DNA from: an uncultured Parcubacteria group bacterium
GTDB taxonomy: Bacteria; Patescibacteriota; Patescibacteriia; UBA9934; CAMTUG01
DNA length: 64,000 bases
NCBI GenBank assembly: GCA_947084965.1
Contig: CAMTUG010000001.1
Span: forward strand, 74,166 to 138,165
Direction of reading: 5' to 3'
Part shown: positions 3,393 through 49,400 of the stretch, one piece after another
Layout: the number at the start of each line of letters is the position of its first letter
How positions within the stretch are numbered: the first letter of the stretch is position 1
Program-made: the position numbers and the translations under genes
Notes under the pieces: model-generated
Databases searched by the model: none
The model's input: the letters and a program-made list of their open reading frames with translations, nothing else
What the model was told of the DNA's origin: nothing

Positions 3393-3398
3393 AACTTT

Positions 3399-9300: not shown

Positions 9301-12300
9301 ACGAAGCGACCTACTACACCTGGGAAGGCTCAGATCTCGAAGGGTTCCAGCTCGTCTCTTGGTCGCTGATGCAGAGCGACACCACGGACGCTCCGTGTAC
9401 GACCTGGTCAACAACTTCAAGCGCGATCGAGTGTGCGGATCTTTCCACTGCCGGCACGGACGATGCTTGCGATGAGCACGACGATATTTTTGAGAATCCC
9501 GACTGTCGTGAATTCTACGACGCCGATGGCGACATCTTCTATCGTCTTTGGTCAGAAACGGTGACAGTAACGGATTCGTGCACTCCGTATCGCAAGACGC
9601 AGATCGTCGGTGATGATGCCACGGAACAAGCGAGCAACTGCTCCGGTGCCGGTGGTTATTGGGACGGAACGGTCGGGGAGTGTAATTTTTACGGCTACGC
9701 GGATGAGTCCGACGAGTGCCCAGCCACGGCCAACGGGTGTCGTGAATACACCGGCGGCAATAGCCGCAACTCCTCGGTTGTTTATGAGGATGATGTAGAG
9801 GATGAAGACATCGATGAATATATCGTCAACGCAACGACTACCACGGCCGAGGTCAGCAATGAATCGGTCGCCACAGACGGTCACTCGATTCACGTTGAGA
9901 TGTCGGCCGATGACGGCTATGTGGCGGTCGCATCCGCAACGATGGCCGACTGTTCTGAATCGGACGGCTGTACCGCCGATACTGCGGATGAAGACGCCGA
10001 CGGTTCCACCGCTGATTGTGGCGAATCCGACGGTTGTGATGCAGAAGTCGGCACGCTCGGAGTTTCCTGCACGATTAGCGAGGGGGACGCTACGTGTGGC
10101 GCCTTGACCGGGGAACTGGCAGAAGGAAAAGTGTACATCTTAAAATTCTGGGCGAAGACTACGACCAGCAGCTTAGTCATCACTCCGGTATTTATCGAAC
10201 AGGCAGGGACAGGGGATGAATATCAGTTTGATACAGTGACCCTTTCTCCGATCTGGAAGGAATACACCGTCGGCCCGCTCGACACAACGGATGAATCCGG
10301 TTTCGATGATTCAGCCCTTTTGGCCTTCATGGCCGACAGCGGGGCGGAGTTCTATCTCGACAACATCACCTTGCGACAGACCGAAGAAAACATCACCGTT
10401 ATTAAAGATTCTTGGGAAACCCCAGCGACCTGTGATGAAACAGAGGATGGCGTCAGTTCAGATCAGTATCATCTCGGGTGCCAGGAATATCGCGATCAAG
10501 ATGGCGAAACGGTGTACTTGAAGTCCTTCACGCGATTGTGCGACGAAGATCAGGTCGGTTGTGCGGCGTTCTACGACACCCAATCATCGGATTCCGTCTA
10601 CGGCGCGGTGTACAACATCACCTGTGAAGCGGTCACCTCGGCCGGGATCGGCGGAGCGTGCGAAATCGACGGGGAAGAAGTTTGCGACATGGCTGCAGGG
10701 GAGTCTTCCTGCCAGTTTGACTGGATTGGCGGGGTGCCGCGCGAAGATGATGGAACGCTTAAAGATCTGGATAGCACCGATTATCAGTTAGCTCTAAACG
10801 CGGATGCGGTGGTCGTCCCGCCAGACGAAGTGACCTACTTCGTCGCCAGCGATACGTATGCCTGTGACGAAGGCGCTATGGGCTGTATGGAGGTCGGCGT
10901 GCCGACGTACAACCAAGATCAATCGCAGGTAGCCTCCTGGGAAACGAGCTATCTGTTGAATGTGGTCGATGCGTATGATGATATTTTGTGCAACGTCGAT
11001 ACGCTCTTCTGCGAAGCCTGGGACACGACTCAAAATGGGACGTATTACTTCAAGTATCCGCAGGACAAAACGTGCGAATACCGCACCGGAGTGGTGATCG
11101 ACGGATCAGAGTATTCGGGGTGGTTCCGCACGGACACCGATCAATTCTGCTACGGTTCAGGGACCTGTTCGGATGACGCGACCGTTTCCTGCAGCCTTGA
11201 TGCTGATTGTGCCTCTGCCGATGCAGGAACGTGTGAAATCAACGATGGATCGTACGTTCAAGGCGGCACGTTCTCTGGTGTTTGGAGGAACGGGGATACG
11301 GCGTTCGACGGTTGGGTTGGCACGTGTGACGATGAATACGACCTCTGTTCAGAATTTATCGACACACTCGATGTTGGGGAGAACGGCCTTTACGGAACGG
11401 ACGGAGGTTCGTCCAGCTTCTTCTTGAATAACGATGAACTCGATGAGTCAAACTTGCCAGCGTCAAAGCAGTGTTCGGGCCAAGTGAGTCAGAAACAAGG
11501 GTGTATCCTGTTTAATGACACCCTCGATTCTGAATTGAATTATAATGCTTCAGCAACGTATACGCTGAGTGTCCATGCTAACGAATTCTATTCAGGTACA
11601 ATGACCTACGGACTGGTCGATCCGATTAGCTGCCCAGATTCTGGGGTCGTTGAAACGTTGAGTGGCACGTCCTACGATCTTTGCGCGATGCGTTGTACGT
11701 ACCGCAACGATCTGTTGCATCCTTACGAAGACTATTCAACGACCACGGGAGAGGATTTTTACACTTTTACGACTTCTTGTATCTATGACAGTGACTGCCC
11801 ATTGATTGAATCGGACGGCAGCGATCTTGTTGACGGAACGTGCGAAACAGGAACCTTTACTGGTGCAGGAAGCTCAGGGAGCATTACGGTTCCGACTCTT
11901 GAAGACGATACCAATCGTATCCAAAAAGTGAATCTCGACCGCGACTGCGCCGAGTGGCTTTCGTGTTCATCGCAAACAACAGTTTGGGATGAGTCAGCGA
12001 GCGCCTACAAGACCGTCTGTGATGGTATCGGAATGTGTAATGAATACTCCTCGCTCGGTGAAACAAGTTTCTGCACCAACTGGAACATTGATGCCAGTCC
12101 AACTCTGCTGACGAGTAATCATTACGCTTCGCGCGATATTGGTTGGTACGGATATGAATATGCTGGGTATGCCGTTCCGTATAGTCTGCCGGCGCATCTT
12201 TTGAGTCAAAAGAATGTCAATCCTAGCAAATGGTGTACTTACTCAACAGCAGATGGCAGTGTGTATGATGGCCGCGATTACGGATACGAGACCCCGTTTA

Positions 12301-15300
12301 TTGATTGTTCGGCAGATGATGGTATGTGTGATGATGCGACGGGCTCGACGAGCGCCGTCTGTAGTTCGGCTCCAACGGACTATCGCTTGGTCTACGACGC
12401 TGGAACGTGCGACGAGGAAAACGGTGAAAGTTGTGAAGTTGGTTTCTGTGCCTCAAGCGGCGCATCGTGCGGAACCGACAGTGACTGTGATTCGGGCGAC
12501 ACCTGTGAAACAGGGTATTGTGGATACGCCGCATCATCCGGAACGTGCGAGGTTGATGCAGACTGTACCGACTCAGTGTACAACACCTGTAATAACAATC
12601 TCTGCACTACCTTAACAGCCGAAGCCTGTTCCGTCTCTTCAGAATGTACTAATACGTCACTTGGTACCGCTACTTGTATTGATTCAGCTACATCGATGGA
12701 CGGGATGTGCTTTGAAAACGAGTGTTTGGTTGATGTTTCTGATCGAGATGAAGACGGGAATCTTGATGACTTTGATTACGATCTGGCCGAAGCTCTTGAT
12801 TGTCGAGGGTGGCCAGAAAGTTCCGCTCCGTTCCCAAATGAAGTAGTAACGATCTGGCAAAACGCCGACGGGGCGACCGACGCCACCCCAGATGGTGATG
12901 AAAACGCGATCACGACGCTGTCGACCTTTGAAGATGTCAATTTGTGTGCGGGCGGCGAAGAATGTCTCTGTAACTACGATGTGGTTGAGTATGGCACGGG
13001 GAAAACGTGGTATTACGATCAGGCCTCAGACGCGATCCCGACCTATAAGTGCGTTGGTGGGTTGTATGATGGTGGCGAATGTGATGCCACCGCCGGTGGA
13101 GCGATGGTTATTGATGATGTTATTCAGACAGAATTGTGTTCAGAGGGGTCAGGAGTTTGCACGCGCCTTTCTTCCCAACAAACGATGATTGGGCTTGAGG
13201 GTTACTGCTTAGAGCGTGACACGTCGCTCACCCTAAACGGTCAGACCGGGGAAGCACCGTGTCTGACCTGGCTCCCCGTCGATCGTCCAGCGGGCGCGAC
13301 GGACATTTACGGCAAAGCGACCGAAGCGGGATATCCACTCGAAGACACCTTCTACTGCGGCGACATCGATCTGTACATGGATGTTCCGACTTCGTCGATC
13401 GGTTGTGCCCAGCACGAAACTTCGTCTGGTGGTCAAGATTGTAACTATGTAAGTAGTACGGAAGATCCTTACTGGGGTGACTTGCTCCGCGGGGACGGAA
13501 ACGCCGTTTGTCCGGACGGTATGTTCGCTGTGATCGGCCGCTGTATCGATTCGGATGGTAAAACGGACGGTGATTTTGATGACCCGTATGCCTCCTCGAG
13601 TGGAAATTCAGCCGTAGATACCTGCATGGCGGACGCTGCTGATGATTCAAACGATCATCCCTACTTCTGTGTCCCTGAAGGTTCGGTACATACAGAAGGG
13701 ATCGACGAAGGAGATCTTTGCGACATTCCAGATGACGACCTGCTTAATGACTTCGGAGCTGCCTTAAATGAGGTAAAAGAAAGCGACTGGGATTACGATG
13801 ATGTCTGGGACATTAACGGAACGTGGGGTCAGATGGAGACCGTAGCTTCATCGTTATCACTCGGGAACGATGTCTATAAGATTGAGGCCCAGCCGGATGA
13901 ATTCGATACACTGTACGAGTACTATTCTGATTGTGTATTAGAAGGAGTCGACTACTTATCGACTAAGAATAATCCGTACTTAATCCCGACACCGGATAAC
14001 TTACTTAGCGGTTCGTACTACACCTGTTCAAACAGCAGCGGCCCGAGCCGCGAAGCGGCAGTTTGTGCTGATGGAAACTATGATAATCGTGACCTCGTTT
14101 CGGAAGTGGAGAATAGTTACCACGACCTGACATTTGGCACTGTCGTTTATCCAGGGTGTTCTTCGATTGTCCAGGTCGCTTCGACGACAGAAAACAGAGC
14201 CTGGACCGACCGCGTGCTCTTTGATGGTCGCGCGTATGCGATCGATCAGTTCTCGTCCGCTTCGCTCGCCTTCACGATGGATACGGTGGAAAATCCGTTC
14301 GGTGTCTCGGTATCTCCGACCTATTTGAACGAAGAGATTGATCCGAACCCAGCCCGTCCGCTTAGCTGTCTTGGTGACATTGACGGTGACGGCTATGATG
14401 ACATCTATTTGCCGAACGTGAGTGGATCATGTGGTTCTGGCTCATTGATCTCGGATGGCCTCAACCAGGGCCGCGCTTACGACGACTTTGACGGGGAAAC
14501 GGGAGGGTACATCATGGTTAGCGACAGTGAAAATCTGCGCCCAGATCAGGTTCTCTTCGGCCTGATCTCCCCGAGTACGGCTTGGGAAAACGCCATCTCC
14601 GAAATTTTTGCCTTCGCTAATACCTGGTCGAGGTTTGATCAAGGATTGGACGATGATGACGACTTTGAATCGATCGGGTCGTACAGTACTCTTGCAGAAT
14701 CATCCGGCCTGTGGGACATCACGGACTCTGGGGACAGTAATATCGAAGATGGTAATCCGACTGCGCCTGTTGTGCGTGCGGTCGGTGAAACGTGTGTCGA
14801 TCAGTACTGCCGTGAAGGGGTCGAAGATACCTTCAGCGTTAACGGCCAAGACGACAGCGACTTAACCGGTGATGGCGGCCAATTCTTCGCTGACGTGAAG
14901 TTCTTCGTCGAAGCGAACGCCAACCAGATGCCGATTCGTCGTGTGATCGTTGACTGGCAGGATCAGCGCGATACCATGTCCGGTTCGTTGACCGACGATA
15001 ATTACTACAAGAACCGCCGTGGGTTAAACGACAGCAACAACCATTGGTGCGAGCAGGAAACGAACTGGGGCGAAACCGCCGAAGCCTGTGAACCAAACTA
15101 CTTCAATACCACCAATGTCTACACCTGTTCCATGGCACTCGTGGAAACGCTCCCTGTCTGTTCCACTAATGACTCAGGTAACTTGGAAGAATCTCCATGT
15201 CGTGGTGGTGACTCCGGCTACAGCGAAGATGTCTGTATCTTCCAGCCGCGTGTCCACGTTCGCGACAACTGGGGTTGGTGCACAGGGGTGTGTGGGACGG

Positions 15301-15443
15301 ATGGGGAGAGCTGTTATGATGGGGATGGGGAAATTATGACTAATGATAGTACTGATGAGTGTAATTTAGACTACCCGAATGCAGATATGACAGCATGGGA
15401 TCCCTGGGTCTATTACGAAGGACTGATCATCGTTGAGCCATAG
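6342..15443 (+). CDS. Giant secreted Cys-rich acidic surface protein (3033 aa), function unknown
   Basis: Uninterrupted 9.1 kb ORF; signal peptide; >150 Cys, D/T/S/G-rich; no recognisable catalytic motif. Confidence 0.85.
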   Translation: MDEQKPKRNGYLLRRAGATVCLLFVLFAAVLPSAVSAQVVQVVTAPGVPIETTEDLKKELIEKPFQVAFLTIIWNFMTFISNRIAYDAAVAIATAGNGEEPLIELRDPMRYLEDLGKDVVGAGIDALNQSLEAVNIHFDLCAPKAPLVKLSLQLGIRSAYDRPEPDCDFQELTENWEAFTASTIFSASPDEAALFQFSATMNPRTTDLSSAITLLDQIYTDEALTKSSSFAEYLANNGYKNVVNSITGNVETPADLVENAWSRSVEIAIPTKEDRIAGFNFFLESKDLWKQLGVSALSTFANTLLSTFTQRIYSGMFDIDIPESDVLDVGTITFRGGVDAAESHFRSMFTAKIISLDNYSVISEFLTCPGTTTRQLNNCVMDSGFGNAVAGAEVGDPFTVQEAIDEGYIHGDWPLISQDDSRDLDQNCYSYGYCYGNLVRMRKARIIPVGWEMAASIQAAGDSDTLQDVIDQFDDCNADNERDPSHPYCHLIDPNWVLKYPSTQCRASVPGQLVDNDGIKRGTECVDAPSCIQEDAGGECVGGYGYCVREQNSFDFRGTSCPEQYATCLAVSNEDDELSGNYLFNTTDLEECDADSAGCRWYQTTKESTDDVFDWPTIDDLPTLDAAAGTYASRFYYNNDVEECDSDDAGCTRVIEKTDDVTLNLIRNPSFEDDEDADGVPDYWTFTGAGTYDLSGTTSAFASDSVAPGASGSSAIIYQTDLPLQQATFYTLSFYAEQADATSSETLTVYAVINSEDGSAEVDLSGTSYGGDCTIADLDSSGGEETILMSVTPASNTSERFSCTFTSPTFTDEDLGVRIQFLDFIGEEIYVDAVQLEADEDLSDFVVGYGTTLEQLNPTYYKLPPSYLGCTGDSDVDPAECADYAPVCTAQDVGCSEYTPENGDPVVTGIAGALDECPAVCSGYDTYKQEPTRYEPDGDFPLYFIPDTAISCGAQYVGCDEFTNLNTEERESYTYLRACQTTTQTTDEATYYTWEGSDLEGFQLVSWSLMQSDTTDAPCTTWSTTSSAIECADLSTAGTDDACDEHDDIFENPDCREFYDADGDIFYRLWSETVTVTDSCTPYRKTQIVGDDATEQASNCSGAGGYWDGTVGECNFYGYADESDECPATANGCREYTGGNSRNSSVVYEDDVEDEDIDEYIVNATTTTAEVSNESVATDGHSIHVEMSADDGYVAVASATMADCSESDGCTADTADEDADGSTADCGESDGCDAEVGTLGVSCTISEGDATCGALTGELAEGKVYILKFWAKTTTSSLVITPVFIEQAGTGDEYQFDTVTLSPIWKEYTVGPLDTTDESGFDDSALLAFMADSGAEFYLDNITLRQTEENITVIKDSWETPATCDETEDGVSSDQYHLGCQEYRDQDGETVYLKSFTRLCDEDQVGCAAFYDTQSSDSVYGAVYNITCEAVTSAGIGGACEIDGEEVCDMAAGESSCQFDWIGGVPREDDGTLKDLDSTDYQLALNADAVVVPPDEVTYFVASDTYACDEGAMGCMEVGVPTYNQDQSQVASWETSYLLNVVDAYDDILCNVDTLFCEAWDTTQNGTYYFKYPQDKTCEYRTGVVIDGSEYSGWFRTDTDQFCYGSGTCSDDATVSCSLDADCASADAGTCEINDGSYVQGGTFSGVWRNGDTAFDGWVGTCDDEYDLCSEFIDTLDVGENGLYGTDGGSSSFFLNNDELDESNLPASKQCSGQVSQKQGCILFNDTLDSELNYNASATYTLSVHANEFYSGTMTYGLVDPISCPDSGVVETLSGTSYDLCAMRCTYRNDLLHPYEDYSTTTGEDFYTFTTSCIYDSDCPLIESDGSDLVDGTCETGTFTGAGSSGSITVPTLEDDTNRIQKVNLDRDCAEWLSCSSQTTVWDESASAYKTVCDGIGMCNEYSSLGETSFCTNWNIDASPTLLTSNHYASRDIGWYGYEYAGYAVPYSLPAHLLSQKNVNPSKWCTYSTADGSVYDGRDYGYETPFIDCSADDGMCDDATGSTSAVCSSAPTDYRLVYDAGTCDEENGESCEVGFCASSGASCGTDSDCDSGDTCETGYCGYAASSGTCEVDADCTDSVYNTCNNNLCTTLTAEACSVSSECTNTSLGTATCIDSATSMDGMCFENECLVDVSDRDEDGNLDDFDYDLAEALDCRGWPESSAPFPNEVVTIWQNADGATDATPDGDENAITTLSTFEDVNLCAGGEECLCNYDVVEYGTGKTWYYDQASDAIPTYKCVGGLYDGGECDATAGGAMVIDDVIQTELCSEGSGVCTRLSSQQTMIGLEGYCLERDTSLTLNGQTGEAPCLTWLPVDRPAGATDIYGKATEAGYPLEDTFYCGDIDLYMDVPTSSIGCAQHETSSGGQDCNYVSSTEDPYWGDLLRGDGNAVCPDGMFAVIGRCIDSDGKTDGDFDDPYASSSGNSAVDTCMADAADDSNDHPYFCVPEGSVHTEGIDEGDLCDIPDDDLLNDFGAALNEVKESDWDYDDVWDINGTWGQMETVASSLSLGNDVYKIEAQPDEFDTLYEYYSDCVLEGVDYLSTKNNPYLIPTPDNLLSGSYYTCSNSSGPSREAAVCADGNYDNRDLVSEVENSYHDLTFGTVVYPGCSSIVQVASTTENRAWTDRVLFDGRAYAIDQFSSASLAFTMDTVENPFGVSVSPTYLNEEIDPNPARPLSCLGDIDGDGYDDIYLPNVSGSCGSGSLISDGLNQGRAYDDFDGETGGYIMVSDSENLRPDQVLFGLISPSTAWENAISEIFAFANTWSRFDQGLDDDDDFESIGSYSTLAESSGLWDITDSGDSNIEDGNPTAPVVRAVGETCVDQYCREGVEDTFSVNGQDDSDLTGDGGQFFADVKFFVEANANQMPIRRVIVDWQDQRDTMSGSLTDDNYYKNRRGLNDSNNHWCEQETNWGETAEACEPNYFNTTNVYTCSMALVETLPVCSTNDSGNLEESPCRGGDSGYSEDVCIFQPRVHVRDNWGWCTGVCGTDGESCYDGDGEIMTNDSTDECNLDYPNADMTAWDPWVYYEGLIIVEP

Positions 15444-20423: not shown

Positions 20424-20927
20424 ATGGAAACGAATATTCCCATCGAACGTATCTATCAAAATATTTATCTCATTCGGGGAAAAAAGGTTATGTTAGATTC
20501 TGATCTGGCTATCCTTTATGGTGTAGAGACAAGATCCCTAAACCAAGCCGTGCGTCGCAATATCGAACGTTTTCCGGAAGACTTTATGTTTGAACTAAGC
20601 TCAGTTGAGCTAAAATCTTTGAGATCACAAATTGTGATCTCAAACGGTCGAGGTGGAGCCAGATATGGCCACATGGTTTTTTCTGAATACGGAATCGCCA
20701 TGTTATCGAGTGTTTTGCGAAGTGAAAAGGCGGTGCAGGTCAATATTCAGATCATTCGGGCATTTATTGCTCTGCGTGACTTTGTGCTTAGTAATGATGA
20801 TTTGCAGATGAAAATCGAAGCACTTGAATTGCGTTATGACGGCGAGTTGCGTTCAGTTTTCGATGCTCTGAATCGTCTTCTGACTGAAGAGGAGAAGCCG
20901 GAACCAGAAATCGGCTTCAAAACTTGA
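20424..20927 (+). CDS. ORF6N/KilA-N domain protein (phage antirepressor-like DNA-binding)
   Basis: KVMLDSDLAILYGVETRSLNQAVRRNIERFPEDFMFEL signature. Confidence 0.7.
   Translation: METNIPIERIYQNIYLIRGKKVMLDSDLAILYGVETRSLNQAVRRNIERFPEDFMFELSSVELKSLRSQIVISNGRGGARYGHMVFSEYGIAMLSSVLRSEKAVQVNIQIIRAFIALRDFVLSNDDLQMKIEALELRYDGELRSVFDALNRLLTEEEKPEPEIGFKT
20619..20643. repeat. Perfect 25-nt palindrome ttgagatcacaaattgtgatctcaa inside ORF6N gene
   Basis: Identical to copy at 20925-20949. Confidence 0.7.
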
Positions 20928-20949
20928 GATCACAAATTGTGATCTCAAA
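20925..20949. repeat. Perfect 25-nt palindrome overlapping ORF6N stop codon
   Basis: ttgagatcacaaattgtgatctcaa. Confidence 0.7.
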
Positions 20950-20987
20950 GATGATCCACCTTATACACACGAAAAAGTTGGTCATCT

Positions 20988-20998
20988 GTGTTATACTT
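20988..20998 (+). promoter_or_regulatory. Extended -10 promoter TGtTATACT, 8 nt before ATG of VirB6-like gene
   Basis: Motif match; possible -35 ttggtc upstream. Confidence 0.45.
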
Positions 20999-21006
20999 TT
21001 ACCGAT

Positions 21007-23787
21007 ATGCAAGCGCTTAAGGTGCACGTCGAGCGTGCTCTGAATTGGCTCCGCGGCCACAAACGAGAGGTCGTCGGGGTGTTTTGCGTTTTGACGATCA
21101 TGCTGGTTGTTGTGCCGGCGTTTGGTCAAGACGGTGGTGCGGGGGGCGGCGGTCTCGACACCTTTGAACGCTTTGCTTTGTGGATCGCTCGGCTCATGTC
21201 CTATATCGCCATCGGTGTTGTTAAACTGATCGTCCTTTTGATCGACGTCGTTCTGATCCCGATCATGCGTTACAACGAATTTTCCACTTCGCCGATTGTG
21301 GCCCAGGGGTGGGTAGTGGTGCGCGACTTGGTCAACATGTTCTTCGTCGTCGTCCTGCTTTTGATCGCCTTCCAAACGATCCTCGGTCTTGGTCGTGCGG
21401 ATTGGAAGACGCAAGTTCCACGTCTTCTCATCATGGCCGTGGTCATCAACTTTTCTCGCACGATCGCCGGGGTCTTGATCGACTTTGGCCAGGTGGTGAT
21501 GATCACCTTTGTGAACGCGATCCAAAATGTGGCGGGTGGAAATTTTATCCAGCTTTTTGGCCTCGACGAACTATTTAAGTTCAGTGAAGTGGCGGTGGCG
21601 AGCGGGGTCGATAACGGCTCAGGGATGCAAACGTTTGATTTTTTGATCGCCTCGTTTTTGACGCTCATCTTGACCTTTGTCATTTTGGCTTCGATGGTCG
21701 TTCTTTCTGGGTTGCTGGCGTTCCGGATCGTGATTTTGTGGTGTTTGATTATTATGGCTCCGCTCACCTTTTTCCTCGGCGGAGCAAAAGGGGTTATCGG
21801 TCCGGCTGGCGGGCATTACGCCGATTGGTGGAAGCGGTTTACCGGTGCGGTGACTCTCGGACCGATTTTGACGTTCTTCATATGGCTAGCGCTCGCTGCG
21901 GCCAGTGCAGGGAATCTTGCTGAAACACAGGGGTTTGATACGTCGAACGCGAATGAAACAGAGACACAGACGACCGGTTTGATCACCGCCGCATTCGAAG
22001 CTGAGAATATGACCTCGCTGATTATTGCGGTGGCGTTGTTGTTTGCTGGGATTGAAGTTTCGCAATCATCGGCCAGTGCGATCGGTTCGCAGGCGGGGAA
22101 GATCGCCTCTGGTGGGATCGCTTCCATCCCTGGCCTCGCCCGCACCATGGGTCGCATGACCGCCACCGCTCCGCTTGCGGCTGCGGGCGCGGCGAAAAAA
22201 GTCGGGTTGGCTGCCACACCAATCGCGGTTCAGCACGGGGTTCGTCAATGGACCGGCGGCACGTTGGCAGGAATCGGACAGCGGATGGCCGCTATCCCGG
22301 TCATCGGCGGTATTGGGCGCGGAGTGCGTAACGCCGGTCTTTCAATTAACGCCGGTGTAGCGTCAGAAAAAGAACACGAGCGTGCCGAAGCGGCCAAAGC
22401 GAACGCTGGGCTTGGCAAAGCCGATCTCATGTCTGTGGCCCGTACCCCAGATTCGGCCTTTATGGGTGAAATGGACAAACTCCGTAAACAGGACGCCGCT
22501 ATTGCGCTTCTCAACAGCAAGAAGAAACTTCAATCCCTTTCACCGGACGAAGTTTTGGAATTTGGTCGCACGTACCACGACATTTCCGGCGAATTGCCTG
22601 ATGACATTAAGGACAAGTTTGGTAAGAATGCTTTGATGATGGCGCCACAGATCGCTGGGGAAGAAGTCAAGCGCGAAGACTTTGCCGACGAGGCCTCGTA
22701 CCGCGAAGCGCGCAAAAACAAGATCAAAGGCCAGCTTGGCGTTATGGCTCAGACGCCGGGTGATCTTCTGAAGATCGAATCACAAGCGTTTCAGGATCAG
22801 GATTTCATCGCGGCGATGCAAGAGACAAAAGGGATCCGTGGCGAGCCGGACAAGAACGTTATGGAATGGATGGAAACACGCGGAAAGCCAGAACAAAAAC
22901 TTGCGCTGCAGGGAGTTTTGGCTAATCGCGAAGCGCAGTCGCGTGGGGAGCTCTTCTCCTCCGCTGCGGCCGTGGCCGGGATTCCGCGCGGCACTGCGGC
23001 TGGCGATCCAGCATTAACGGCGGCGATTGCAGATTTGGCTGCAAGGATTGCGGCGCTAAAGCCGGGGGCGGACGGGAAGTTTGCTGTGCCTGGGGCTTTG
23101 AATGACGTGATGCTGAGCAATCCGAACGTTGCCAAGACATTCATGGAAAATGCGCAGCCTGGTCTTCTCAAAGCTGCGCTTGAAGATCCGGTCCGCGGTG
23201 CGGCGATTGCCGGTTCCGTGAACGTTTCGAACGTCGAAGAATTGCTAGATTCGGAAAATCTTACCCCAGAGAATAAAAATCTACTCGCCAAAGATCCAAA
23301 GATGGCTGAGGCGCTCAACAATGCTCTCGACGCTCGCGACCAGGAGATCTCCGACGCTCAGCCAGACGTTGACCTGCGAGCGGAGGAACTTGCTCCGAAC
23401 GCAGCCCGACGGTTGGAAGCGGGGCTTGGTGCCGGGTCTGTTGGCTACAATCGTGATACGAGAACTTTCAGCAGTCCAGAATCGCAAGCGGCGCTTATTG
23501 CGGCTATCTCTGAGAAGCCAGAGATCGTGGTTAACCTTGGCGATGCCTTGAAGGCGGAGAATTTTGCTGGACCGCTTGGGGCGGCGGTCGCCCAGGCGAT
23601 GAAGAACGTCAACGTCCCAACGCTCAGCCAGCGCGTGTTGAATGCCGGTTCGCAAGTTGAACAGGCCGGTTTGATTGCGGCGATCAATTCACTCGAGCGC
23701 GCATTACGCGCGGATGCATCTGGCGACGCCGTGGTGGCACAGAAACTGGCGCAGTTGATCAGTGCCAAAAAACGCATGAACATTTAG
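21007..23787 (+). CDS. T4SS VirB6/TrbL-like polytopic membrane protein with long hydrophilic C-terminal extension
   Basis: 6-7 N-terminal TM helices, 926 aa, followed by VirB4-type ATPase locus. Confidence 0.6.
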   Translation: MQALKVHVERALNWLRGHKREVVGVFCVLTIMLVVVPAFGQDGGAGGGGLDTFERFALWIARLMSYIAIGVVKLIVLLIDVVLIPIMRYNEFSTSPIVAQGWVVVRDLVNMFFVVVLLLIAFQTILGLGRADWKTQVPRLLIMAVVINFSRTIAGVLIDFGQVVMITFVNAIQNVAGGNFIQLFGLDELFKFSEVAVASGVDNGSGMQTFDFLIASFLTLILTFVILASMVVLSGLLAFRIVILWCLIIMAPLTFFLGGAKGVIGPAGGHYADWWKRFTGAVTLGPILTFFIWLALAAASAGNLAETQGFDTSNANETETQTTGLITAAFEAENMTSLIIAVALLFAGIEVSQSSASAIGSQAGKIASGGIASIPGLARTMGRMTATAPLAAAGAAKKVGLAATPIAVQHGVRQWTGGTLAGIGQRMAAIPVIGGIGRGVRNAGLSINAGVASEKEHERAEAAKANAGLGKADLMSVARTPDSAFMGEMDKLRKQDAAIALLNSKKKLQSLSPDEVLEFGRTYHDISGELPDDIKDKFGKNALMMAPQIAGEEVKREDFADEASYREARKNKIKGQLGVMAQTPGDLLKIESQAFQDQDFIAAMQETKGIRGEPDKNVMEWMETRGKPEQKLALQGVLANREAQSRGELFSSAAAVAGIPRGTAAGDPALTAAIADLAARIAALKPGADGKFAVPGALNDVMLSNPNVAKTFMENAQPGLLKAALEDPVRGAAIAGSVNVSNVEELLDSENLTPENKNLLAKDPKMAEALNNALDARDQEISDAQPDVDLRAEELAPNAARRLEAGLGAGSVGYNRDTRTFSSPESQAALIAAISEKPEIVVNLGDALKAENFAGPLGAAVAQAMKNVNVPTLSQRVLNAGSQVEQAGLIAAINSLERALRADASGDAVVAQKLAQLISAKKRMNI

Positions 23788-23927
23788 GGAATGTTTAAAA
23801 AACTCGCGATCTGCCGGTTTGCGGGGCCCTGCCACCTCTTCGTCGTACGTAGTGTGTACGCCTCAGAGGATGGCTGCCCCGCGCACCGACATCTCATCAA
23901 GTTTTTCAAACATTCCAGCTTTACTTA

Positions 23928-25571
23928 ATGGGGGGTATGCCGACACGGCTGGAACAATATCAACAGTTGCCAAAAGCCGTTTCCGACTTCTTTTTTGATC
24001 TGTCAAAGCAGGAAGCGGCCACGGCTAAACTTGTGACGCACGGGATCACGGAGGACATGGCGTTTGATCTATTACTTATCGCTGAAGATGTCCTTCTAAA
24101 AAACGTGCGCTTACAGGATGTGTATTCTAAAGTCGCGGATTTGACGAAGCTCGATCCAGAAAAAGCAAAGATCGTGGCTCGCGACTTGATCGGCTCGCGA
24201 TTGCTCCCGCTTGAGGCCTTTACGCCAGGGGTCCCTGAAGAGCTCGCTCGTCTTGGGGGAACCGTTGCGGAGTATCCGGCCGAGCGGGTAGAAAAACGCA
24301 AAGTGAGTGCGGAGAGTTTTGTTCGTGAAACGTTGAACGGCTTGAATTTGCGTCTGCCTGATCCGGCTTTGCAGAGTCGACTGGAGTTTATTCTCGTTTC
24401 GTTTGCCCGCGGAGTGCGCACGGCCGATCAGGCGGTCGCCATGATGGGACGATCTGACAAGGTCGGTGGATTGAACTTGTCCGAAGAGCAGGCGAGAAAG
24501 GTCATCACAGTGATCGACGAGCGGAAGAAGTCGGTGGATGTAGAAGAAATGAGTACAGAAGACAGGAAAGAGGAAAGAGGGGAGAGGAAAGAAGAGGAGA
24601 AAACGGAGGTGCGGGTGGCACCAGCCGTAGTGCCAAACGGAATCGATACGTTTGTTGCAGATGTTCTTGCAAAGATTAATCTCTCCTTTCCGTCCTCAGA
24701 TTTGAACACACGCTTGAAGAATGTCGTCACGGCACGTTTGCGTGATTTGCGCACGTTGGCACAGACAAAAGATCTGCTTGTTTCGCCGATCGATAAGAAC
24801 GGTCTCGCGTTGAGTCCTGAGCAGGCTGCTCAGGTGGCGACGATCATCGAATCTGCCGTTGCCGAGCGATCAGGTGCACATCAAGCCGTTGCTAATCAAG
24901 CCAAGTCAACGTACATCGATGATCGTCAGAAGCAGCTCAGTCAGCGCGAAGTCTTGGCGCAACGAGAAGGCGAGGTGCTAGCCAAGCGCTATGCGGCGAT
25001 GACGGGCAAGGCGCCGATCGGTGCGGTGGAGTCGGCAGCCCCAGCTTCTGCTCGTGTTTCTGCTGCTGTTCCCAAAATGGCCGATTTGAGTGCTCATGAA
25101 AGGCGTGTGGATGCTGCGGCCAAAGCGGTCATGACCAGCGCGGCTCCGCGTCCGGCCCCGGTCATGCCGAAACTCTCCACCCCGTCTGTTGCCCCAGCCG
25201 GAGGAGCAGATCGTCCGCCTGTGGCAGACGTGAAATATGCACCCAAGCTCGCTGGCCCCGTTCAGGAACTCCAGATGATGACCCCTGTCGACTTTCGCCG
25301 TCTTTCGAGTGATCCTGAACAAGCGGCGCTTAAAGTTCAAGATATTATCGGCCTTTTGACTCAACAATCCTACGAAAAGCGGGTGGAGGGGGTTCAGGCC
25401 TGGCAATCTTCGCCGGTCAACAAGCTGTATATCGCCATGTCCCAAGACGTTCTCACGACAGGAAAGTCCGTCGTTGATGTATCGGCCGCCTGGAAAGCGG
25501 CGGGGAAGGAGGCGCTGACCCCAGAAGAGCTTCGGGCGATCGTGAAATTGAATGCAGGACTCCACTTTTAG
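23928..25571 (+). CDS. Hypothetical T4SS-associated protein with internal duplicated about 70-aa segment
   Basis: Repeat LNLRLPDPALQSRLEF.. / INLSFPSSDLNTRLKN..; contains in-frame purine-rich insertion at 24557-24600. Confidence 0.5.
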   Translation: MGGMPTRLEQYQQLPKAVSDFFFDLSKQEAATAKLVTHGITEDMAFDLLLIAEDVLLKNVRLQDVYSKVADLTKLDPEKAKIVARDLIGSRLLPLEAFTPGVPEELARLGGTVAEYPAERVEKRKVSAESFVRETLNGLNLRLPDPALQSRLEFILVSFARGVRTADQAVAMMGRSDKVGGLNLSEEQARKVITVIDERKKSVDVEEMSTEDRKEERGERKEEEKTEVRVAPAVVPNGIDTFVADVLAKINLSFPSSDLNTRLKNVVTARLRDLRTLAQTKDLLVSPIDKNGLALSPEQAAQVATIIESAVAERSGAHQAVANQAKSTYIDDRQKQLSQREVLAQREGEVLAKRYAAMTGKAPIGAVESAAPASARVSAAVPKMADLSAHERRVDAAAKAVMTSAAPRPAPVMPKLSTPSVAPAGGADRPPVADVKYAPKLAGPVQELQMMTPVDFRRLSSDPEQAALKVQDIIGLLTQQSYEKRVEGVQAWQSSPVNKLYIAMSQDVLTTGKSVVDVSAAWKAAGKEALTPEELRAIVKLNAGLHF

Positions 25572-25580
25572 TGCTATACT
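25572..25580 (+). promoter_or_regulatory. Extended -10 promoter TGCTATACT, 6 nt before ATG
   Basis: Motif match. Confidence 0.5.
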
Positions 25581-25586
25581 TCCTTC

Positions 25587-26018
25587 ATGCCTGATCAATT
25601 TGTCGTCCCTCAATTTATCGATGTCGAGGATAAAATTTTAGGACCGCTTTCGGTGCGGCAGTTTGTGATTTTGCTCCTGGTGCTGCTAACGGACGCCTTG
25701 CTCTATAAGCTCCTCACCTTTGGAAAGTTTATGATGGTGGGGATTCCGGTGATCATCATCGGTGGGGTGTTCGCTTTTGTGAAGATTAACGGCCAGCCGT
25801 TTCATTATGCTCTTCTGAATATCGTACAGACGCTTCGTAAACCGGGGATTCGGGTGTGGGATAAGCACCTGACCGACGGCGAGGTGCGTAGTTTTATTAC
25901 AGAAGAAGCAGCCCCGCCACCGCCACCACCGGTCCGTAAGGCTGCGCTTACTTCGAGCCGTTTGTCTGAGCTGTCCCTCGTCGTCAACACAGGTGGGGTT
26001 TACAATCCAGAGGAATAG
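25587..26018 (+). CDS. Small 2-TM membrane protein, possibly VirB3/PrgI-like
   Basis: Two hydrophobic helices, poly-Pro stretch; position in T4SS-like locus. Confidence 0.35.
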   Translation: MPDQFVVPQFIDVEDKILGPLSVRQFVILLLVLLTDALLYKLLTFGKFMMVGIPVIIIGGVFAFVKINGQPFHYALLNIVQTLRKPGIRVWDKHLTDGEVRSFITEEAAPPPPPPVRKAALTSSRLSELSLVVNTGGVYNPEE

Positions 26019-26021
26019 TAT

Positions 26022-26137
26022 GAAATTCGAAATACGAAGTACGAAACAATCGGAAAATCAGAAAGGGAAAGTTTCAAAATTTCCTCTTTCCGATTCGAAT
26101 TTGTTTCGGATTTCGATATTCGAATTTCGTATTTATA
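26022..26137. repeat. Palindromic intergenic repeat, copy d
   Basis: gaaattcgaaatacgaagtacgaaacaat ... attcgaatttgtttcggatttcgatattcgaatttcgtattt. Confidence 0.75.
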
Positions 26138-26146
26138 GCGAGCGGT

Positions 26147-26851
26147 ATGGCCAAAGATAAGAACACCTTAGCAAAACCGAAGCCGGGTCCAGCGACCCAG
26201 CGGTATTTGGATATCGCCGAAATCCGCGATGACATGGTGCTGTTGAAGGACGGCACGGTTCGCGGGGTGTTGATCGTCTCTTCGCTTAACTTTGCGTTGA
26301 AGTCGCACGATGAACAGCAGGCGATTATTCAGGCATACATGTCCTTCTTGAACGGGATCGAATATCCAATTCAGATCGTGGTGCAGTCGCGCAAAATGAA
26401 CATTGATAAGTATATTGAGGAGATGCGCGAACAGTGGCGCAATCAAACAAATGAGTTGCTGAAAACGCAGATCCAGGAATATATCGGTTTCATCACCCAG
26501 CTCGTCACCCTTGGGGAGATCATGACCAAGCGTTTCTTCGTCGTCGTTCCCTATGACCCGGTGACCAACAGCAAGAAAAAGTTTTTGTCGCGGGTGGGGG
26601 AAGCATTTTCCCCAGCGAAACTTTTCAAACTCAAGCGGAAGCAGCTTGAAGAGCGCAAGCGCGAATTAGATCAGCGCCTATCTCTCATTCAAAGTGGGCT
26701 CGGTTCGATGAGTTTGCAGTCCGTGCGGCTCGATACCCAGGGGCTGATTGAACTCTATTATTCGGTGTACAATCCTGAGCAGGCCGAAGTACAAAAATTG
26801 GAAGACGTCAATAAATTGCGGGTCGAAGATTCGGGTGCAGTAAGTCTCTAG
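26147..26851 (+). CDS. Hypothetical protein, VirB4 N-terminal-domain-like
   Basis: KDGTVRGVLIVSSLNF...IEYPIQIVVQS resembles VirB4/TraC N-domain logic. Confidence 0.35.
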   Translation: MAKDKNTLAKPKPGPATQRYLDIAEIRDDMVLLKDGTVRGVLIVSSLNFALKSHDEQQAIIQAYMSFLNGIEYPIQIVVQSRKMNIDKYIEEMREQWRNQTNELLKTQIQEYIGFITQLVTLGEIMTKRFFVVVPYDPVTNSKKKFLSRVGEAFSPAKLFKLKRKQLEERKRELDQRLSLIQSGLGSMSLQSVRLDTQGLIELYYSVYNPEQAEVQKLEDVNKLRVEDSGAVSL

Positions 26852-26855
26852 TATG

Positions 26856-26950
26856 AAATTCGAAATACAAAATACGAAGTACGAAACAATCGGAACATCT
26901 GAAGGAGAAAATCAGAAAATTTCGAATTTCGATATTCGGATTTCGTATTT
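26856..26950. repeat. Palindromic intergenic repeat, copy e
   Basis: Near-identical to copy d at both ends. Confidence 0.75.
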
Positions 26951-26958
26951 ATCATAGT

Positions 26959-40002: not shown

Positions 40003-40866
40003 TTAGTTGTCGCTAACGGTGGCCACATCGATCAGGTTGACGTTTAATTCCGACGCCGCTTGGCGCACCTCTGGTATGGTTGCTCCAGTGAGTGGGTCGA
40101 CAAAGAAGTAGTAGAGGAGGTACATCAGGAAGAGGACGAGGAAGAGGACGAGGAGCCCAAAAACAATTCCGACGATCGCTTCCCCCAGAGCCGTAAGGTC
40201 CGTAGCGATACGCGAAAGGTTCTCGGTCATTTTGACCGGGTTTTTTGTGAGGAATCGAACTTTTGGCGGGGTGAGGATCGTTGCCACGCTGTTGAGTGGC
40301 TCTTCGCTCGTTCGGTATTTTATCCCTTTATTCAAACGATACAGAATGATGCCGAACGCCATCCAAGAAAAAAGGCCGAAATCCAAGCCCCAGACCGTGT
40401 CGGTTATTGCTGGGAGGGACGTTTGAACAGATTGCCAAAGTTTGATGCGGAATCCTTCCAGTTGTTCGCGCTGCTCTTCGGTGAGGGCCTTGTCAAGAAT
40501 TGAACCTTCCCGTTCCTTGATCTGTTGCAGCAGTGCACTGACCATTGCCACGGAACTGGCAGAGCGAATTTTCTGCGTTTGTTCCTGCAAGAACTTGGTG
40601 TATTCATCAAACTCATCCCCTTGGACAAACCCGCTGTCGTTCATGCGAGAGACAGCTGGATTCGTGTCGAGTGCGCCTTGGTTTGCCTGCGTCTGGGCGG
40701 TTTGGGCATCGAACTGCTCTTGGGCAGAGAGATTTTGAGGGATCGAAGTGGGCAGTGGGGAGCTTACGTCCATCGGCTGTGAACCATTAACGCGATCTTG
40801 CGCCTGCGAAGTTTGCAGGCGCTCGGCGCGGTCACGTTCTAAGGCTTGAGCCACGGCCATACGCAA
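40003..40866 (-). CDS. Hypothetical membrane protein
   Basis: C-terminal TM helices, 287 aa. Confidence 0.45.
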   Translation of the reverse strand: MRMAVAQALERDRAERLQTSQAQDRVNGSQPMDVSSPLPTSIPQNLSAQEQFDAQTAQTQANQGALDTNPAVSRMNDSGFVQGDEFDEYTKFLQEQTQKIRSASSVAMVSALLQQIKEREGSILDKALTEEQREQLEGFRIKLWQSVQTSLPAITDTVWGLDFGLFSWMAFGIILYRLNKGIKYRTSEEPLNSVATILTPPKVRFLTKNPVKMTENLSRIATDLTALGEAIVGIVFGLLVLFLVLFLMYLLYYFFVDPLTGATIPEVRQAASELNVNLIDVATVSDN

Positions 40867-43351: not shown

Positions 43352-43357
43352 AAGGTT

Positions 43358-43470
43358 AGAAATCCGAAATTCGAATATCGAAATACGAAATAAGCGGAAA
43401 CCGGAAAGTTCGAATTTCAAATTTTTCTCTTTCCGATTCGAATTTGTTTCGTATTTCGAATTTCGTATTT
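43358..43470. repeat. Palindromic intergenic repeat, copy f (between htpX stop and clpC start)
   Basis: gaaatacgaaat...ttgtttcgtatttcgaatttcgtattt. Confidence 0.75.
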
Positions 43471-43477
43471 TTTATCT

Positions 43478-44392: not shown

Positions 44393-44478
44393 TTGGAAAC
44401 GTGAAAGGGAAACGTGTTTGCGAATTTTCTCTTTTCATTTCGAATGTGTTTCGTATTTCGTTTTTCGAATTTAGAATT
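44357..44478. repeat. Palindromic intergenic repeat, copy g (between lemA stop and htpX start)
   Basis: gaaatacgaaatacgaatatcgaaattcgaaacaat ... gtgtttcgtatttcgtttttcgaattt. Confidence 0.75.
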
Positions 44479-45025
44479 TAACCGCTGGAGCCTGGTGGAC
44501 TTCATCTGGGGCGTCAAAGAAATCGCGTTTGGTGAATTTGAGCATTCCAGCGATCAGGTTGGCAGGGAAGGTCTGTTGGGTCGTGTTGAAGTCGCGGACG
44601 TTGGCGTTGTAGAATCGGCGCGCGGCTTGGATTTTATCTTCGGCGTCTGAAAGCTCGGTCTGCAAGTGCAAGAAGTTTTGTGACGCTTGGAGGGCCGGAT
44701 AATTTTCGGCGACCGCGAAGAGGGACTTCAAGGTGTTGGTCAGCATGTTTTCTGCTTCGGCGTGCTGAGCAGCAGTTGTTGCGCCCATGGCGGCGGAACG
44801 CGCTTTGGTCACGTTCTCAAAGACCGACGATTCGTGTTTGGCATACCCTTTGACCGATTCGACCAAGTTCGGGATCAGATCGTAGCGGCGTTTCATCTGC
44901 ACTTCGATGTCCGACCAGGCTTCATCTGTACGATTGCGAAGCGTGATAAGCTTGTTAAACAACATCACGATCCAGAGGATCAACACCACGATCACGGCCC
45001 CGAGGATCAGCGGCAAATACATCAT
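44471..45025 (-). CDS. lemA: LemA family protein
   Basis: N-terminal TM plus conserved LemA region (NRTDEAWSDIEVQMKRRYDLIPNLV). Confidence 0.8.
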   Translation of the reverse strand: MMYLPLILGAVIVVLILWIVMLFNKLITLRNRTDEAWSDIEVQMKRRYDLIPNLVESVKGYAKHESSVFENVTKARSAAMGATTAAQHAEAENMLTNTLKSLFAVAENYPALQASQNFLHLQTELSDAEDKIQAARRFYNANVRDFNTTQQTFPANLIAGMLKFTKRDFFDAPDEVHQAPAVKF

Positions 45026-49399: not shown

Positions 49400-49400
49400 T

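Follow-up and report, generated by a model that had tools for sequence, protein, structure and literature searches.

Similar purine tracts in three inter-domain linkers of a Patescibacteria genome read as decayed remnants of one heptanucleotide repeat

How do three unrelated genes come to carry nearly the same purine-rich sequence in frame? The question is raised by a 547-aa hypothetical gene (23928-25571, (+) strand), dnaE and clpC, all of which lie in the window, the 64-kb stretch of DNA analyzed here, which comes from an uncultured, Uhrbacteria-like member of the Patescibacteria. A preliminary description attributed the tracts to a short in-frame mobile sequence that is inserted into genes and adds charged linkers to their proteins. 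Here we describe the tracts, their periodicity and their setting, and weigh the processes that may have produced them.

Results

The tract in the 547-aa gene is an unbroken run of 40 purines (24564-24603, (+) strand) encoding RKEERGERKEEEK at about residues 213-225. An exact 24-mer, AGAGGAAAGAGGGGAGAGGAAAGA, is common to this gene (24569-24592) and dnaE (55469-55492), on the (+) strand in both; the identity noted previously is thus real, its length being 24 nt and not 23. The frame is identical at both copies, which encode the peptide EERGERKE. No match to the 24-mer, with up to three mismatches allowed, was obtained in 100 dinucleotide-preserving shuffles of the 64-kb window. The two genes share an ungapped block of 30 identical nucleotides out of 32 (24565-24596 and 55465-55496). 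Homology extending past the 24-mer was considered and rejected, as the alignment of the flanks to the left and right of the block did not surpass that of shuffled sequence (p about 0.2-0.27). The clpC tract matches that of the 547-aa gene at 31 of 40 nucleotides and represents a more diverged third copy; together, the three tracts are the only purine or pyrimidine runs of at least 20 nt in the window. Purine tracts are therefore present in the three genes as first described, exact over 24 nt in two and diverged in clpC, and they encode linker sequence rich in E, R and K. The designation of the 547-aa gene as T4SS-associated holds for its surroundings, with PrgI and a TraG/VirB4-like ATPase adjoining it; the gene itself has no Pfam match.

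Codon usage points to a relation at the level of DNA. AGA and AGG account for only 3.3% and 2.4% of the arginine codons in the window, and two independent encodings of EERGERK would agree in all codons with a probability of 1.3e-3. The identical codons, including the rare AGA and AGG, therefore indicate a DNA-level origin and uphold the earlier view that the resemblance is not one of convergent peptide composition. A six-frame search of the window with the cyclic peptide (RKEERGK)n yielded matches at the three tracts only, and no copy of the motif encoded by other codons was found in the window. The three peptides have KEERGxRKEE in common. Among 272 homologues, the words EERGE, RGERK and ERGKR occur only in the three proteins of this genome.

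The feature that the preliminary description overlooked is a periodicity of seven nucleotides, which makes in-frame reading automatic. TRF reported a period of 7 at the tracts of the 547-aa gene and dnaE, with 4.1 and 3.9 copies, respectively. Compared with a perfect 28-base (AGGAAAG)n array, the tracts of the 547-aa gene, dnaE and clpC score 26, 25 and 25 of 28; they are the only sites in the 64 kb that reach at least 20 of 28, and the best shuffle scored 19. Their head-to-tail periodic units place them in the heptanucleotide class of tandem simple-sequence repeats (microsatellite/VNTR). These sequence features lead us to read all three tracts as what decay has left of a single heptanucleotide array, (AGGAAAG)n.

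The extent of decay and the number of units differ between the genes (four units in the 547-aa gene, eight in dnaE and about five in clpC). The 547-aa gene contains AGGAAAG, AGGAAAG, AGGGGAG and AGGAAAG (24564-24591, (+) strand; 7, 7, 5 and 7 of 7 positions matching AGGAAAG), followed by AAGAGGAGAAAA. The array in the C-terminal linker of dnaE (55464-55519, (+) strand) encodes TTEERGERKEEGGGRREER and consists of eight in-phase units, namely ACGACAG, AGGAAAG, AGGGGAG, AGGAAAG, AGGAGGG, GGGCGGG, AGACGAG and AGGAAAG, with 5, 7, 5, 7, 5, 3, 4 and 7 matching positions; a single phase is kept throughout, and the last unit is perfect. The whole dnaE linker (55443-55540) is 90% purine. In clpC, the array lies in the linker between the N-domain and D1 (42846-42880, coding strand (-)), encodes a 12-residue peptide and is made up of GGGAAAG, AGGAACG, AGGAAAA, AGAAAAG and AAGAAGT (6, 6, 6, 6 and 4 matching positions).

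Because 7 and 3 share no factor, (AGGAAAG)n yields the same cyclic charged peptide, (RKEERGK)n, in whichever frame it is read. Its purine strand contains neither a stop codon nor a hydrophobic codon, and the array is therefore tolerated by a linker. The 7-nt periodicity thus accounts for the peptide and for the seemingly precise in-frame placement, and it lowers the weight of the 24-nt identity. In ClpC, a 10-residue peptide corresponds at 10 of 10 positions to the cyclic translation of (AGGAAAG)n; over these ten codons the DNA differs from a perfect array at four nucleotides, all four differences being synonymous (P about 6e-4 if all substitutions are equally probable; about 0.012 if only transitions are considered). 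This pattern suggests that the peptide may now be under some purifying selection, and with these substitutions the clpC tract is probably older than the other two.

The tracts of the 547-aa gene and dnaE share the variant unit AGGGGAG, in the order AGGAAAG-AGGGGAG-AGGAAAG. If the two arrays had decayed independently, the probability of a shared 24-mer with at least two derived changes would be 0.0005-0.013 under the most favourable model. This common derived order makes it probable that one of the tracts served as template for the other, or that a third array gave rise to both; copying is favoured over independent decay. No non-coding (AGGAAAG)n array that might have served as donor was found within the 64-kb window. 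Long, perfect switching arrays of the phase-variable neuO type are also not what is seen here, as the arrays comprise 4-8 imperfect units and two of them reside in genes, dnaE and clpC, for which an off state would presumably be deleterious.

All three tracts are located in inter-domain linkers that vary in sequence and length in every orthologue, so that DnaE, the 547-aa protein and ClpC each carry the tract in a low-complexity linker between conserved domains. The DnaE tract comes after the OB fold, and the linker that contains it is variable in 59 of the 59 orthologues examined. At the corresponding position, orthologues of the 547-aa protein have unrelated linkers rich in P, A and K. AlphaFold2 predicts a lack of fixed structure for the linker of the 547-aa protein, the one linker modelled, with pLDDT below 50 at residues 208-234 between well-predicted domains (about 90); a low-confidence helix is drawn at residues 217-227. 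Linker lengths are ordinary: 32 residues in DnaE compared with an orthologue median of 25 (range 16-59), 31 in ClpC compared with a median of 30, and 32 in the 547-aa protein compared with a range of 11-161. Total protein lengths likewise equal those of the orthologues. Measured against orthologues devoid of the tract, the linkers consequently show no net gain, and the term "inserted" is not borne out.

None of the orthologues of DnaE, ClpC or the 547-aa protein carries the tract, so that the segment is not vertically conserved, as the earlier proposal requires, and the syntenic DNA of the closest relatives contains no (AGGAAAG)n array (best scores 17-21 of 28). The nearest sampled relatives, at 62-76% amino acid identity (76% for DnaE), are too far removed for the event to be visible in a comparison. 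For the dnaE tract, inheritance by descent was considered in view of a purine run, AGGAGAAAAGAAAAAGGAAGAG, in the DnaE linker of the relative L020, and was rejected; this run is not heptameric (best score 20 of 28), the other members of that clade have no purine run in the DnaE linker, and we treat it as independent.

To place the repeat in a wider context, we collected its occurrences in other genomes and assemblies. Among GTDB representative genomes, which do not include this organism, a 20-mer was found in 18 genomes of other phyla, in unrelated purine arrays; the viral contigs scanned gave no match. A degenerate 23-mer retrieved at least 120 loci from metagenome contigs, dominated by perfect (GAGGAAA)n microsatellites, and none of the matches listed was a relative of the window. 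In metagenome contigs, (AGGAAAG)n is common, mostly non-coding and shows no coding bias. The low complexity that the preliminary description named as grounds for giving up its proposal is thus partly in evidence, with arrays widespread in metagenomes and without preference for coding sequence. A distant homologue from another lineage carries (AGGAAAG)n in a different linker (L143, 4295-4322; 26 of 28), a sequence that fits recurrent birth of simple sequence in such linkers. In terms of density, the three arrays in the 64-kb window contrast with a single one in about 780 kb of coding sequence of homologues in other genomes. Over 20615-26121 (5.5 kb), the window is 100% identical to an independently assembled Logan contig (ERR3478686, L142), and the exact DnaE and 547-aa proteins are recorded in both NCBI and Logan, as singleton protein clusters.

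The proposed mobility of the tracts found no counterpart in their structure. Three dispersed copies are present in the 64-kb window, itself part of a 476.5-kb contig, and at these we saw no defined termini, terminal inverted repeats or palindrome, no target duplication and no similarity of the flanks; the tracts consist of purines only, which precludes inverted repeats, and in the mRNA the tract is predicted to be fully unpaired. A link to a heptamer-armed palindromic intergenic element of this genome, two of whose arms end in GGAAAGAGGAAA or GGAAAGAGAAAA, was likewise rejected; nhmmer searches with full-length and half-element profiles gave no match at the three tracts at E<=100 or E<=1000, and tracts and element have only a word of 11-12 nt in common. 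A half copy of this palindromic element lies in frame in pheT, indicating that the genome tolerates in-frame repeat insertions. Rfam matches in the window are limited to three tRNAs, with no known RNA family at the tracts. A diversity-generating retroelement, prompted by the A/G differences between copies, was dismissed because the tracts are far shorter than template and variable repeats, and an H-DNA mirror repeat because the heptamer lacks mirror symmetry.

Discussion

We consider the tracts to be what remains, in frame and decayed, of a single heptanucleotide simple repeat in unconstrained linkers, a reading that needs no dedicated mobility machinery (estimated probability about 0.6). What has happened is probably simple-sequence turnover plus one copying event between genes, and not the movement of a demonstrated mobile element. 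The arrays would have arisen, or been renewed, through DNA-level repeat processes after the split from the nearest sampled relatives, either by slippage in steps of three units (21 nt) or by replacement of linker DNA through recombination or template switching between purine-rich tracts. Template switching or ectopic gene conversion over the roughly 31 kb between the 547-aa gene and dnaE may account for the copying, be it from one of these genes into the other or from a third array into both, and the linkers would tolerate the array and use (RKEERGK)n as a flexible charged spacer. Two observations argue against slippage alone. A 7-nt unit cannot grow singly in essential genes without a frameshift, which makes slippage in situ an awkward origin and implies import of a preformed block, as a mobile cassette would also look. 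Furthermore, three arrays per 64 kb constitute a strong local excess that simple slippage alone does not account for.

These two points lend some weight to a non-autonomous in-frame mobile cassette, a preformed purine block of about 30-40 nt that would enter or replace linker DNA at numerous places in the genome through a trans-acting or recombinational mechanism, with an outcome like that of Rickettsia palindromic elements. We regard it as unlikely. The identity of 30 of 32 nucleotides between two unrelated genes 31 kb apart, the occurrence of the heptamer three times within 64 kb and its absence from the syntenic DNA of relatives are what such a cassette would leave behind, the frame argument would favour it, a homologous protein of another lineage has the same array at a different site, and the half palindromic element in pheT attests to tolerance of in-frame repeats. 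However, the tracts have no ends, terminal repeats or target duplication, their flanks are dissimilar, they bring no net gain in length over orthologues, and they differ in length and units (4, 8 and about 5). The palindromic-element HMMs miss them even at E<=1000, the 20-mer is absent from the viral contigs scanned, and its matches in reference genomes are unrelated purine arrays of other phyla. Rather doubtful is also a broader, lineage-specific process that relocates or renews preformed (AGGAAAG)n blocks within the linker DNA of Patescibacteria, as a minimal in-frame cassette without ends, by microhomology-mediated template switching or by an enzyme; here tolerance of the array would follow from the charged peptide being identical whatever the frame, and the Shine-Dalgarno-like units might in addition signal translational pausing or internal starts at the boundaries of domains. 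A role of the latter kind, in which GAGG/GGAGG arrays make translation pause or act as internal ribosome-binding sites from which the downstream domain is expressed separately, is very improbable when taken by itself. It would agree with the position of the three tracts at domain boundaries with the purines on the sense strand, with the predicted lack of pairing in the mRNA, with AGGAGG in dnaE (55492-55497) and with GGAGG in the 547-aa gene (24605-24609), beyond which a spacer of 5 nt leads to an in-frame GTG (24615); yet no such combination of Shine-Dalgarno sequence and start codon follows the dnaE or clpC tract, orthologues do without any such sequence, and the anti-Shine-Dalgarno sequence of the organism's 16S rRNA lies outside the window. 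Shine-Dalgarno-mediated pausing is itself disputed.

Selection on the peptide would explain the resemblance if KEERG[EK]RKEE were a functional short linear motif, such as a binding site or a charged single-helix spacer, that had converged in the three proteins. The shared KEERGxRKEE, the four synonymous changes out of four in ten clpC codons and the low-confidence AlphaFold2 helix at residues 217-227 are in line with this idea, which we nonetheless find improbable: two copies use identical codons with rare AGR arginine codons, no copy of the motif in other codons exists in the window, every orthologue lacks the motif, the peptide is the plain translation of the heptamer in any frame, and glycine suits a single-alpha-helix spacer poorly. 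Chance similarity of three unrelated E/R/K-rich linkers would gain from the finding of the same 20-mer in purine arrays of 18 unrelated reference genomes and from the abundance of perfect (GAGGAAA)n in metagenomes, and given heptamer ancestry, 24 identical nucleotides are much less extreme than 4^-24 would imply. It remains decidedly improbable in view of the shuffles (0 of 100 with a match), the restriction of runs of at least 20 nt and of heptamer-like sites to three each in the window, the rare codon use, and the value of 0.0005-0.013 obtained even under the most favourable model for the shared 24-mer with two or more derived changes. Because the sequence comes from a metagenome-assembled genome, and G-rich runs are sometimes artefactual, an assembly or sequencing error was considered as well; its probability is practically negligible with three open reading frames, conserved domains on either side, a Logan contig that is 100% identical over 5.5 kb, and NCBI and Logan records that each contain the exact DnaE and 547-aa proteins.

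Decay of a heptanucleotide repeat, the reading we prefer, has a well-described parallel. Heptanucleotide repeats in coding sequence that keep the frame only as multiples of three units are well established: in neuO of the CUS-3 prophage in E. coli K1, a coding (AAGACTC)n array is in frame only if the number of units is divisible by three; strand slippage alters the array, and three units encode a peptide repeat of 7 residues (PMC13001214). The likeness lies in a 7-nt unit repeated within a coding region and in frame in multiples of three. In contrast to the 3-53 perfect units that form a phase-variation switch at the 5' end of the accessory gene neuO, the arrays described here occur at three loci, consist of 4-8 units in a decayed state, encode linkers in the middle of the products of housekeeping or essential genes and give no sign of on/off switching. 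The tracts also resemble slippage-made low-complexity or cryptically simple protein regions in their hypervariable disordered linkers, biased codons, fast turnover and absence from orthologues. Such regions, however, are usually built from tri- or hexanucleotide units or single-residue runs, whereas the unit here is a heptamer and a derived variant is common to two loci, implying transfer between them. The combination of a coding heptamer microsatellite with a low-complexity linker is real but modest.

If this reading is right, the tracts illustrate clearly, on a small scale, how inter-domain linkers are renewed in the reduced genomes of uncultured bacteria, with a frame-independent heptamer supplying ready-made charged spacers that can be copied between genes, even in the essential dnaE and clpC. 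They would be of larger importance only if the family proved to be large and to have common ends, that is, to be a real in-frame mobile cassette. For repeat hunting they carry a caution, as a 24-nt identity of low-complexity tracts is far less informative once the period is recognised.

Two further comparisons concern the peptide and the dispersed arrangement. ER/K single alpha-helix linkers are likewise charged spacers between folded domains and rich in E, R and K; the present peptides differ from them in having a glycine every 7 residues and in being short (10-20 aa), and are unfit for a stable single alpha-helix, with AlphaFold2 confidence below 50. Rickettsia palindromic elements are in-frame repeats in coding genes, about 100-150 bp long and palindromic, with recognisable ends and a net insertion relative to orthologues. 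Like them, the tracts form a dispersed repeat in unrelated ORFs that leaves the frame unbroken and adds surface or linker peptide, but they measure 28-56 nt, have a composition that rules out a palindrome, lack ends and do not lengthen the protein. The feature of this window that does resemble a Rickettsia palindromic element is the separate, heptamer-armed palindromic element.

Heptanucleotide structure of the purine tracts

Three purine-rich tracts, situated in the gene of a 547-aa hypothetical protein (24564-24603, plus strand), in dnaE (55464-55519, plus strand) and in clpC (42846-42880, minus strand), are the only purine or pyrimidine runs of at least 20 nt in the window. The 24-mer AGAGGAAAGAGGGGAGAGGAAAGA occurs in two exact copies, at 24569-24592 and 55469-55492, which both read EERGERKE in the same frame; no match to it with up to three mismatches was obtained in 100 dinucleotide-preserving shuffles of the window. 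The tracts of the 547-aa gene and dnaE share 30 of 32 bases without a gap. At the clpC site the nucleotide match is poorer (31 of 40 nt identical to the 547-aa-gene tract), and the encoded peptide is close to those of the other two. The near-identity claimed in the preliminary description is therefore exact over 24 nt for two genes, with clpC as a diverged third site. The purine feature is real and above chance. An assembly artefact was rejected on the grounds that positions 20615-26121 are 100% identical in an independent Logan assembly (run ERR3478686) and that all three reading frames are open, with conserved domains on either side of the tracts.

Tandem Repeats Finder assigned a period of 7 to both main tracts (AGGAAAG x4.1 and AGAGGAA x3.9). 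Each 28-nt stretch of both strands was compared with perfect (AGGAAAG)n in its seven phases. A score of at least 20/28 was reached at exactly three sites in the window, namely the tracts (26, 25 and 25); the maximum in shuffled sequence was 19/28. The 547-aa gene contains the units AGGAAAG, AGGAAAG, AGGGGAG and AGGAAAG (24564-24591). In dnaE, eight units in a single phase (55464-55519) match the consensus at 5, 7, 5, 7, 5, 3, 4 and 7 of seven positions, and the complete linker of 98 nt is 90% purine. The clpC units are GGGAAAG, AGGAACG, AGGAAAA, AGAAAAG and AAGAAGT. Because 7 and 3 have no common factor, a heptamer array has a coding period of 21 nt and yields one cyclic peptide, (RKEERGK)n, whichever of the three frames is read; the in-frame position and the common frame of the tracts are thus automatic and have no evidential weight.

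The clpC peptide agrees with the cyclic translation at 10 of 10 residues. Over these ten codons its DNA departs from the perfect array four times (AGA>CGA, AAG>AAA, AGG>AGA, GAG>GAA), in each case synonymously, as counted from the sequence. Of the 90 single-base changes that the ten codons allow, only 14 are synonymous (10 of 30 for transitions), so that the four-out-of-four outcome (P ~6e-4 to 0.012) hints at purifying selection now acting on the peptide. Elsewhere in the window, the plus-strand repeat (AGGAAGAGGACG)x2.3 (40127-40154) is antisense to a hydrophobic stretch, LLVLFLVLFLMYLL, encoded by the minus-strand gene 40003-40866; it is an instance of a purine-rich repeat read from the opposite strand, and its unit is not a heptamer.

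The tracts occupy pre-existing linkers

The DnaE linker, which lies between ...GMWI and ...IxLRGKPS, is of low complexity and 16-59 residues long in 59 orthologues, and its composition is unrelated between genomes; it measures 32 residues in the window genome against a median of 25. The linker between the N-domain and D1 of ClpC spans 16-36 residues in 49 orthologues (31 in the window genome, median 30), and homologues of the 547-aa protein carry a P/A/K-rich linker of 11-161 residues at the tract region (32 in the window genome). An AlphaFold2 model of the latter protein, computed from the homologue alignment, has pLDDT values <50 at residues 208-234, which include the tract, and of ~90 in the flanking domains. 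The peptides EERGE, RGERK and ERGKR were found in none of the other 269 homologues retrieved, and the two nearest relatives, over ~40 kb of syntenic DNA, contained no heptamer array (best scores 17-21/28). Judged from these alignments, the tract segment is without vertical conservation. This agrees with the preliminary description, but the ordinary linker lengths speak against insertion: since linkers pre-exist in all relatives and their length is unchanged, replacement or turnover of linker sequence fits better.

One of these relatives, L020, has purine-rich simple repeats of other units (7489-7508, 13267-13288 and 20545-20569; for example GGAAAAGGGAAAGGGAAAGG and (GGAGAAAGAA)x2.5), one of which sits in its own DnaE linker. 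Coding tracts rich in purines seem to be widespread in this clade, with a lineage-specific unit. Directly 3' of the tract in the 547-aa gene, at 24605-24617, a perfect GGAGG is followed at 5 nt by an in-frame GTG (codon 230), and a small hairpin is predicted at ~24603-24628, after the GTG; the pair might allow translation of the C-terminal half of the protein to start internally.

Origin of the tracts

AGA and AGG, which make up 3.3% and 2.4% of the arginine codons of the window genes, are used repeatedly in the tracts. Two independent encodings of EERGERK would have identical codons with a probability of 1.3e-3, and none of the six frames of the window encodes a cyclic-repeat-like peptide by other codons. 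Codon choice accordingly places the origin of the tracts at the DNA level, not the peptide level. The common origin that had been proposed is supported, at the DNA level, by these rare codons and by the shared AGGGGAG; the accompanying insertion is not, as there is no gain in length.

With a heptamer ancestry granted, what remains of the 24-nt identity is a common unit and a common derived AGGGGAG between consensus units. In simulations of two arrays that start as perfect repeats and decay independently, shared 24-mers with at least two derived changes arose in 0.05-0.15% of trials with all substitutions and in 0.4-1.3% with transitions only. Independent decay of the dnaE and 547-aa-gene tracts is therefore unlikely, although much less so than a naive estimate implies, and copying between the two, or from a third array, is the better explanation. 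Homology between the two genes does not extend beyond the array, the flanks being at the level of shuffled sequence (left p ~0.27, right ~0.20).

Gain or loss of one 7-nt unit would shift the frame, and essential genes, dnaE and clpC among them, would be expected not to tolerate this; the arrays would hence have changed in 21-nt steps or come as preformed blocks. This consideration is the strongest point for an in-frame mobile block that was inserted into, or replaced, linker-coding DNA. We regard such a block as improbable; the tracts are not palindromic, lack defined ends and add no length, and their structure does not support the mobile sequence of the preliminary description. Our preferred reading, to which we assign a probability of about 0.6, is that the tracts are remnants of a coding heptamer microsatellite in unconstrained linkers, with one probable copying event between loci.

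The nearest known case in mechanism is the coding heptanucleotide repeat of neuO, in which strand slippage alters the unit number and translation occurs only with a multiple of three units (PMC13001214). Unlike it, the purine arrays are short and decayed and lie in the middle of the proteins of housekeeping genes, and phase variation is not plausible for them; their evolutionary behaviour is that of ordinary low-complexity linker sequence. As dispersed repeats within ORFs they recall the Rickettsia palindromic elements in outcome, but lack the palindrome, defined ends and net insertion of these elements.

Occurrence in other genomes

Among GTDB representative genomes, the 20-mer at the centre was matched in 18 stretches. 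These belong without exception to unrelated phyla and have unrelated flanks, and several are inside longer purine arrays of GAGGAAA, GAGGGGA and GAGGAGA units. A degenerate 23-mer matched at least 120 loci in metagenome contigs, and nearly all of those listed are perfect (GAGGAAA)n microsatellites. None of the 18 stretches or the metagenome matches listed came from the window organism or a close relative. An array was counted as coding if an ORF ran through it and continued for at least 60 codons in both directions. Of the 152 arrays in the metagenome loci listed and the 18 reference-genome loci, 16 were sense by this simple rule, 17 were antisense and 119 were neither or both. Hence (AGGAAAG)n is a common simple repeat, mostly non-coding and without coding bias among the matches listed, which partly bears out the caveat that the motif might be ubiquitous low-complexity sequence with no coding excess. 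Within Patescibacteria the phenomenon recurs: P0132, a protein from another lineage that is distantly homologous to the 547-aa protein (33% identity), has its own heptamer tract, AGAGGAAAGAGGAAAGAAAAAAGAGGAA (L143, from Logan SRR22388141, 4295-4322), which scores 26/28, encodes REERGKKKEE and lies in a different linker. This may reflect repeated birth or repeated insertion.

A palindromic element with heptamer arms

The window also harbours a family of palindromic elements of ~125 nt, the arms of which are heptamer arrays (GAAATNC)n with the units GAAATTC/GAAATAC; two arms end in GGAAAGAGGAAA or GGAAAGAGAAAA. It is probably the first repeat presupposed by the preliminary description, where the purine element is called a second one. 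Full copies (2060-2191, 3276-3406, 26014-26140, 26847-26954, 43353-43477 and 44353-44485) are accompanied by half copies (5133-5181 and 49988-50053). The elements are intergenic and often end just before a start codon; the copy at 26014-26140 is predicted to form a single extended hairpin (-45.6 kcal/mol, z = -7.2). No Rfam family matched. The family is shared with L020 (13576-13705, 14924-15079 and 7441-7493), whose DnaE is 74% identical, and is absent from L019, another relative. Kinship with the purine tracts was rejected, as profiles of the full and half element gave no tract match at E<=1000, and the two are treated as unrelated on this comparison.

Half copies lie in frame within pheT (ORF 49329-51797, at 49988-50053) and within ORF 4881-5654 (at 5142-5179), resembling in-frame insertions of Rickettsia palindromic elements. 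The pheT copy reads GKFEMRKSKFETSGKSEGKNGKM in the window and GKCEMRNPKFETNPKTEKGKGKAKM at the equivalent place in L020 (7441-7493), and in PheT of L019 this place is taken by a shorter, unrelated segment; two lineages appear to have received the half copy by descent.

Genomic context

The window has a G+C content of 53.5%. The 547-aa gene (23928-25571), the product of which had no Pfam match, adjoins a PrgI-like gene and that of a TraG/VirB4-like ATPase; dnaE is ORF 52104-55757 (likely start 52203) and clpC lies at 40889-43420 on the minus strand (likely start 43351). The best named relatives of DnaE and ClpC are Candidatus Uhrbacteria/Patescibacteria MAGs, with nearest non-self identities of only 76% and 62%, respectively. 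The exact window proteins are singletons in the protein collection, from one 476.5-kb contig with NCBI and Logan records. Several DnaE homologues (P0007, P0051, P0060 and P0077) are ~1600-1630 aa long with intein/LAGLIDADG Pfam domains (PF14890, PF14528), which the window DnaE does not have. Upstream of the T4SS-like genes, a single ORF at 6342-15443 encodes 3033 aa. The 13-nt unit TTGAGATCACAAA is present twice in each of two identical arrays of 26 nt, at 20619-20644 and 20924-20949 (spacing 305 nt), which lie around the 3' part of ORF 20424-20927, and the Logan contig of ERR3478686 (L142) begins at 20615, just upstream of the first array.
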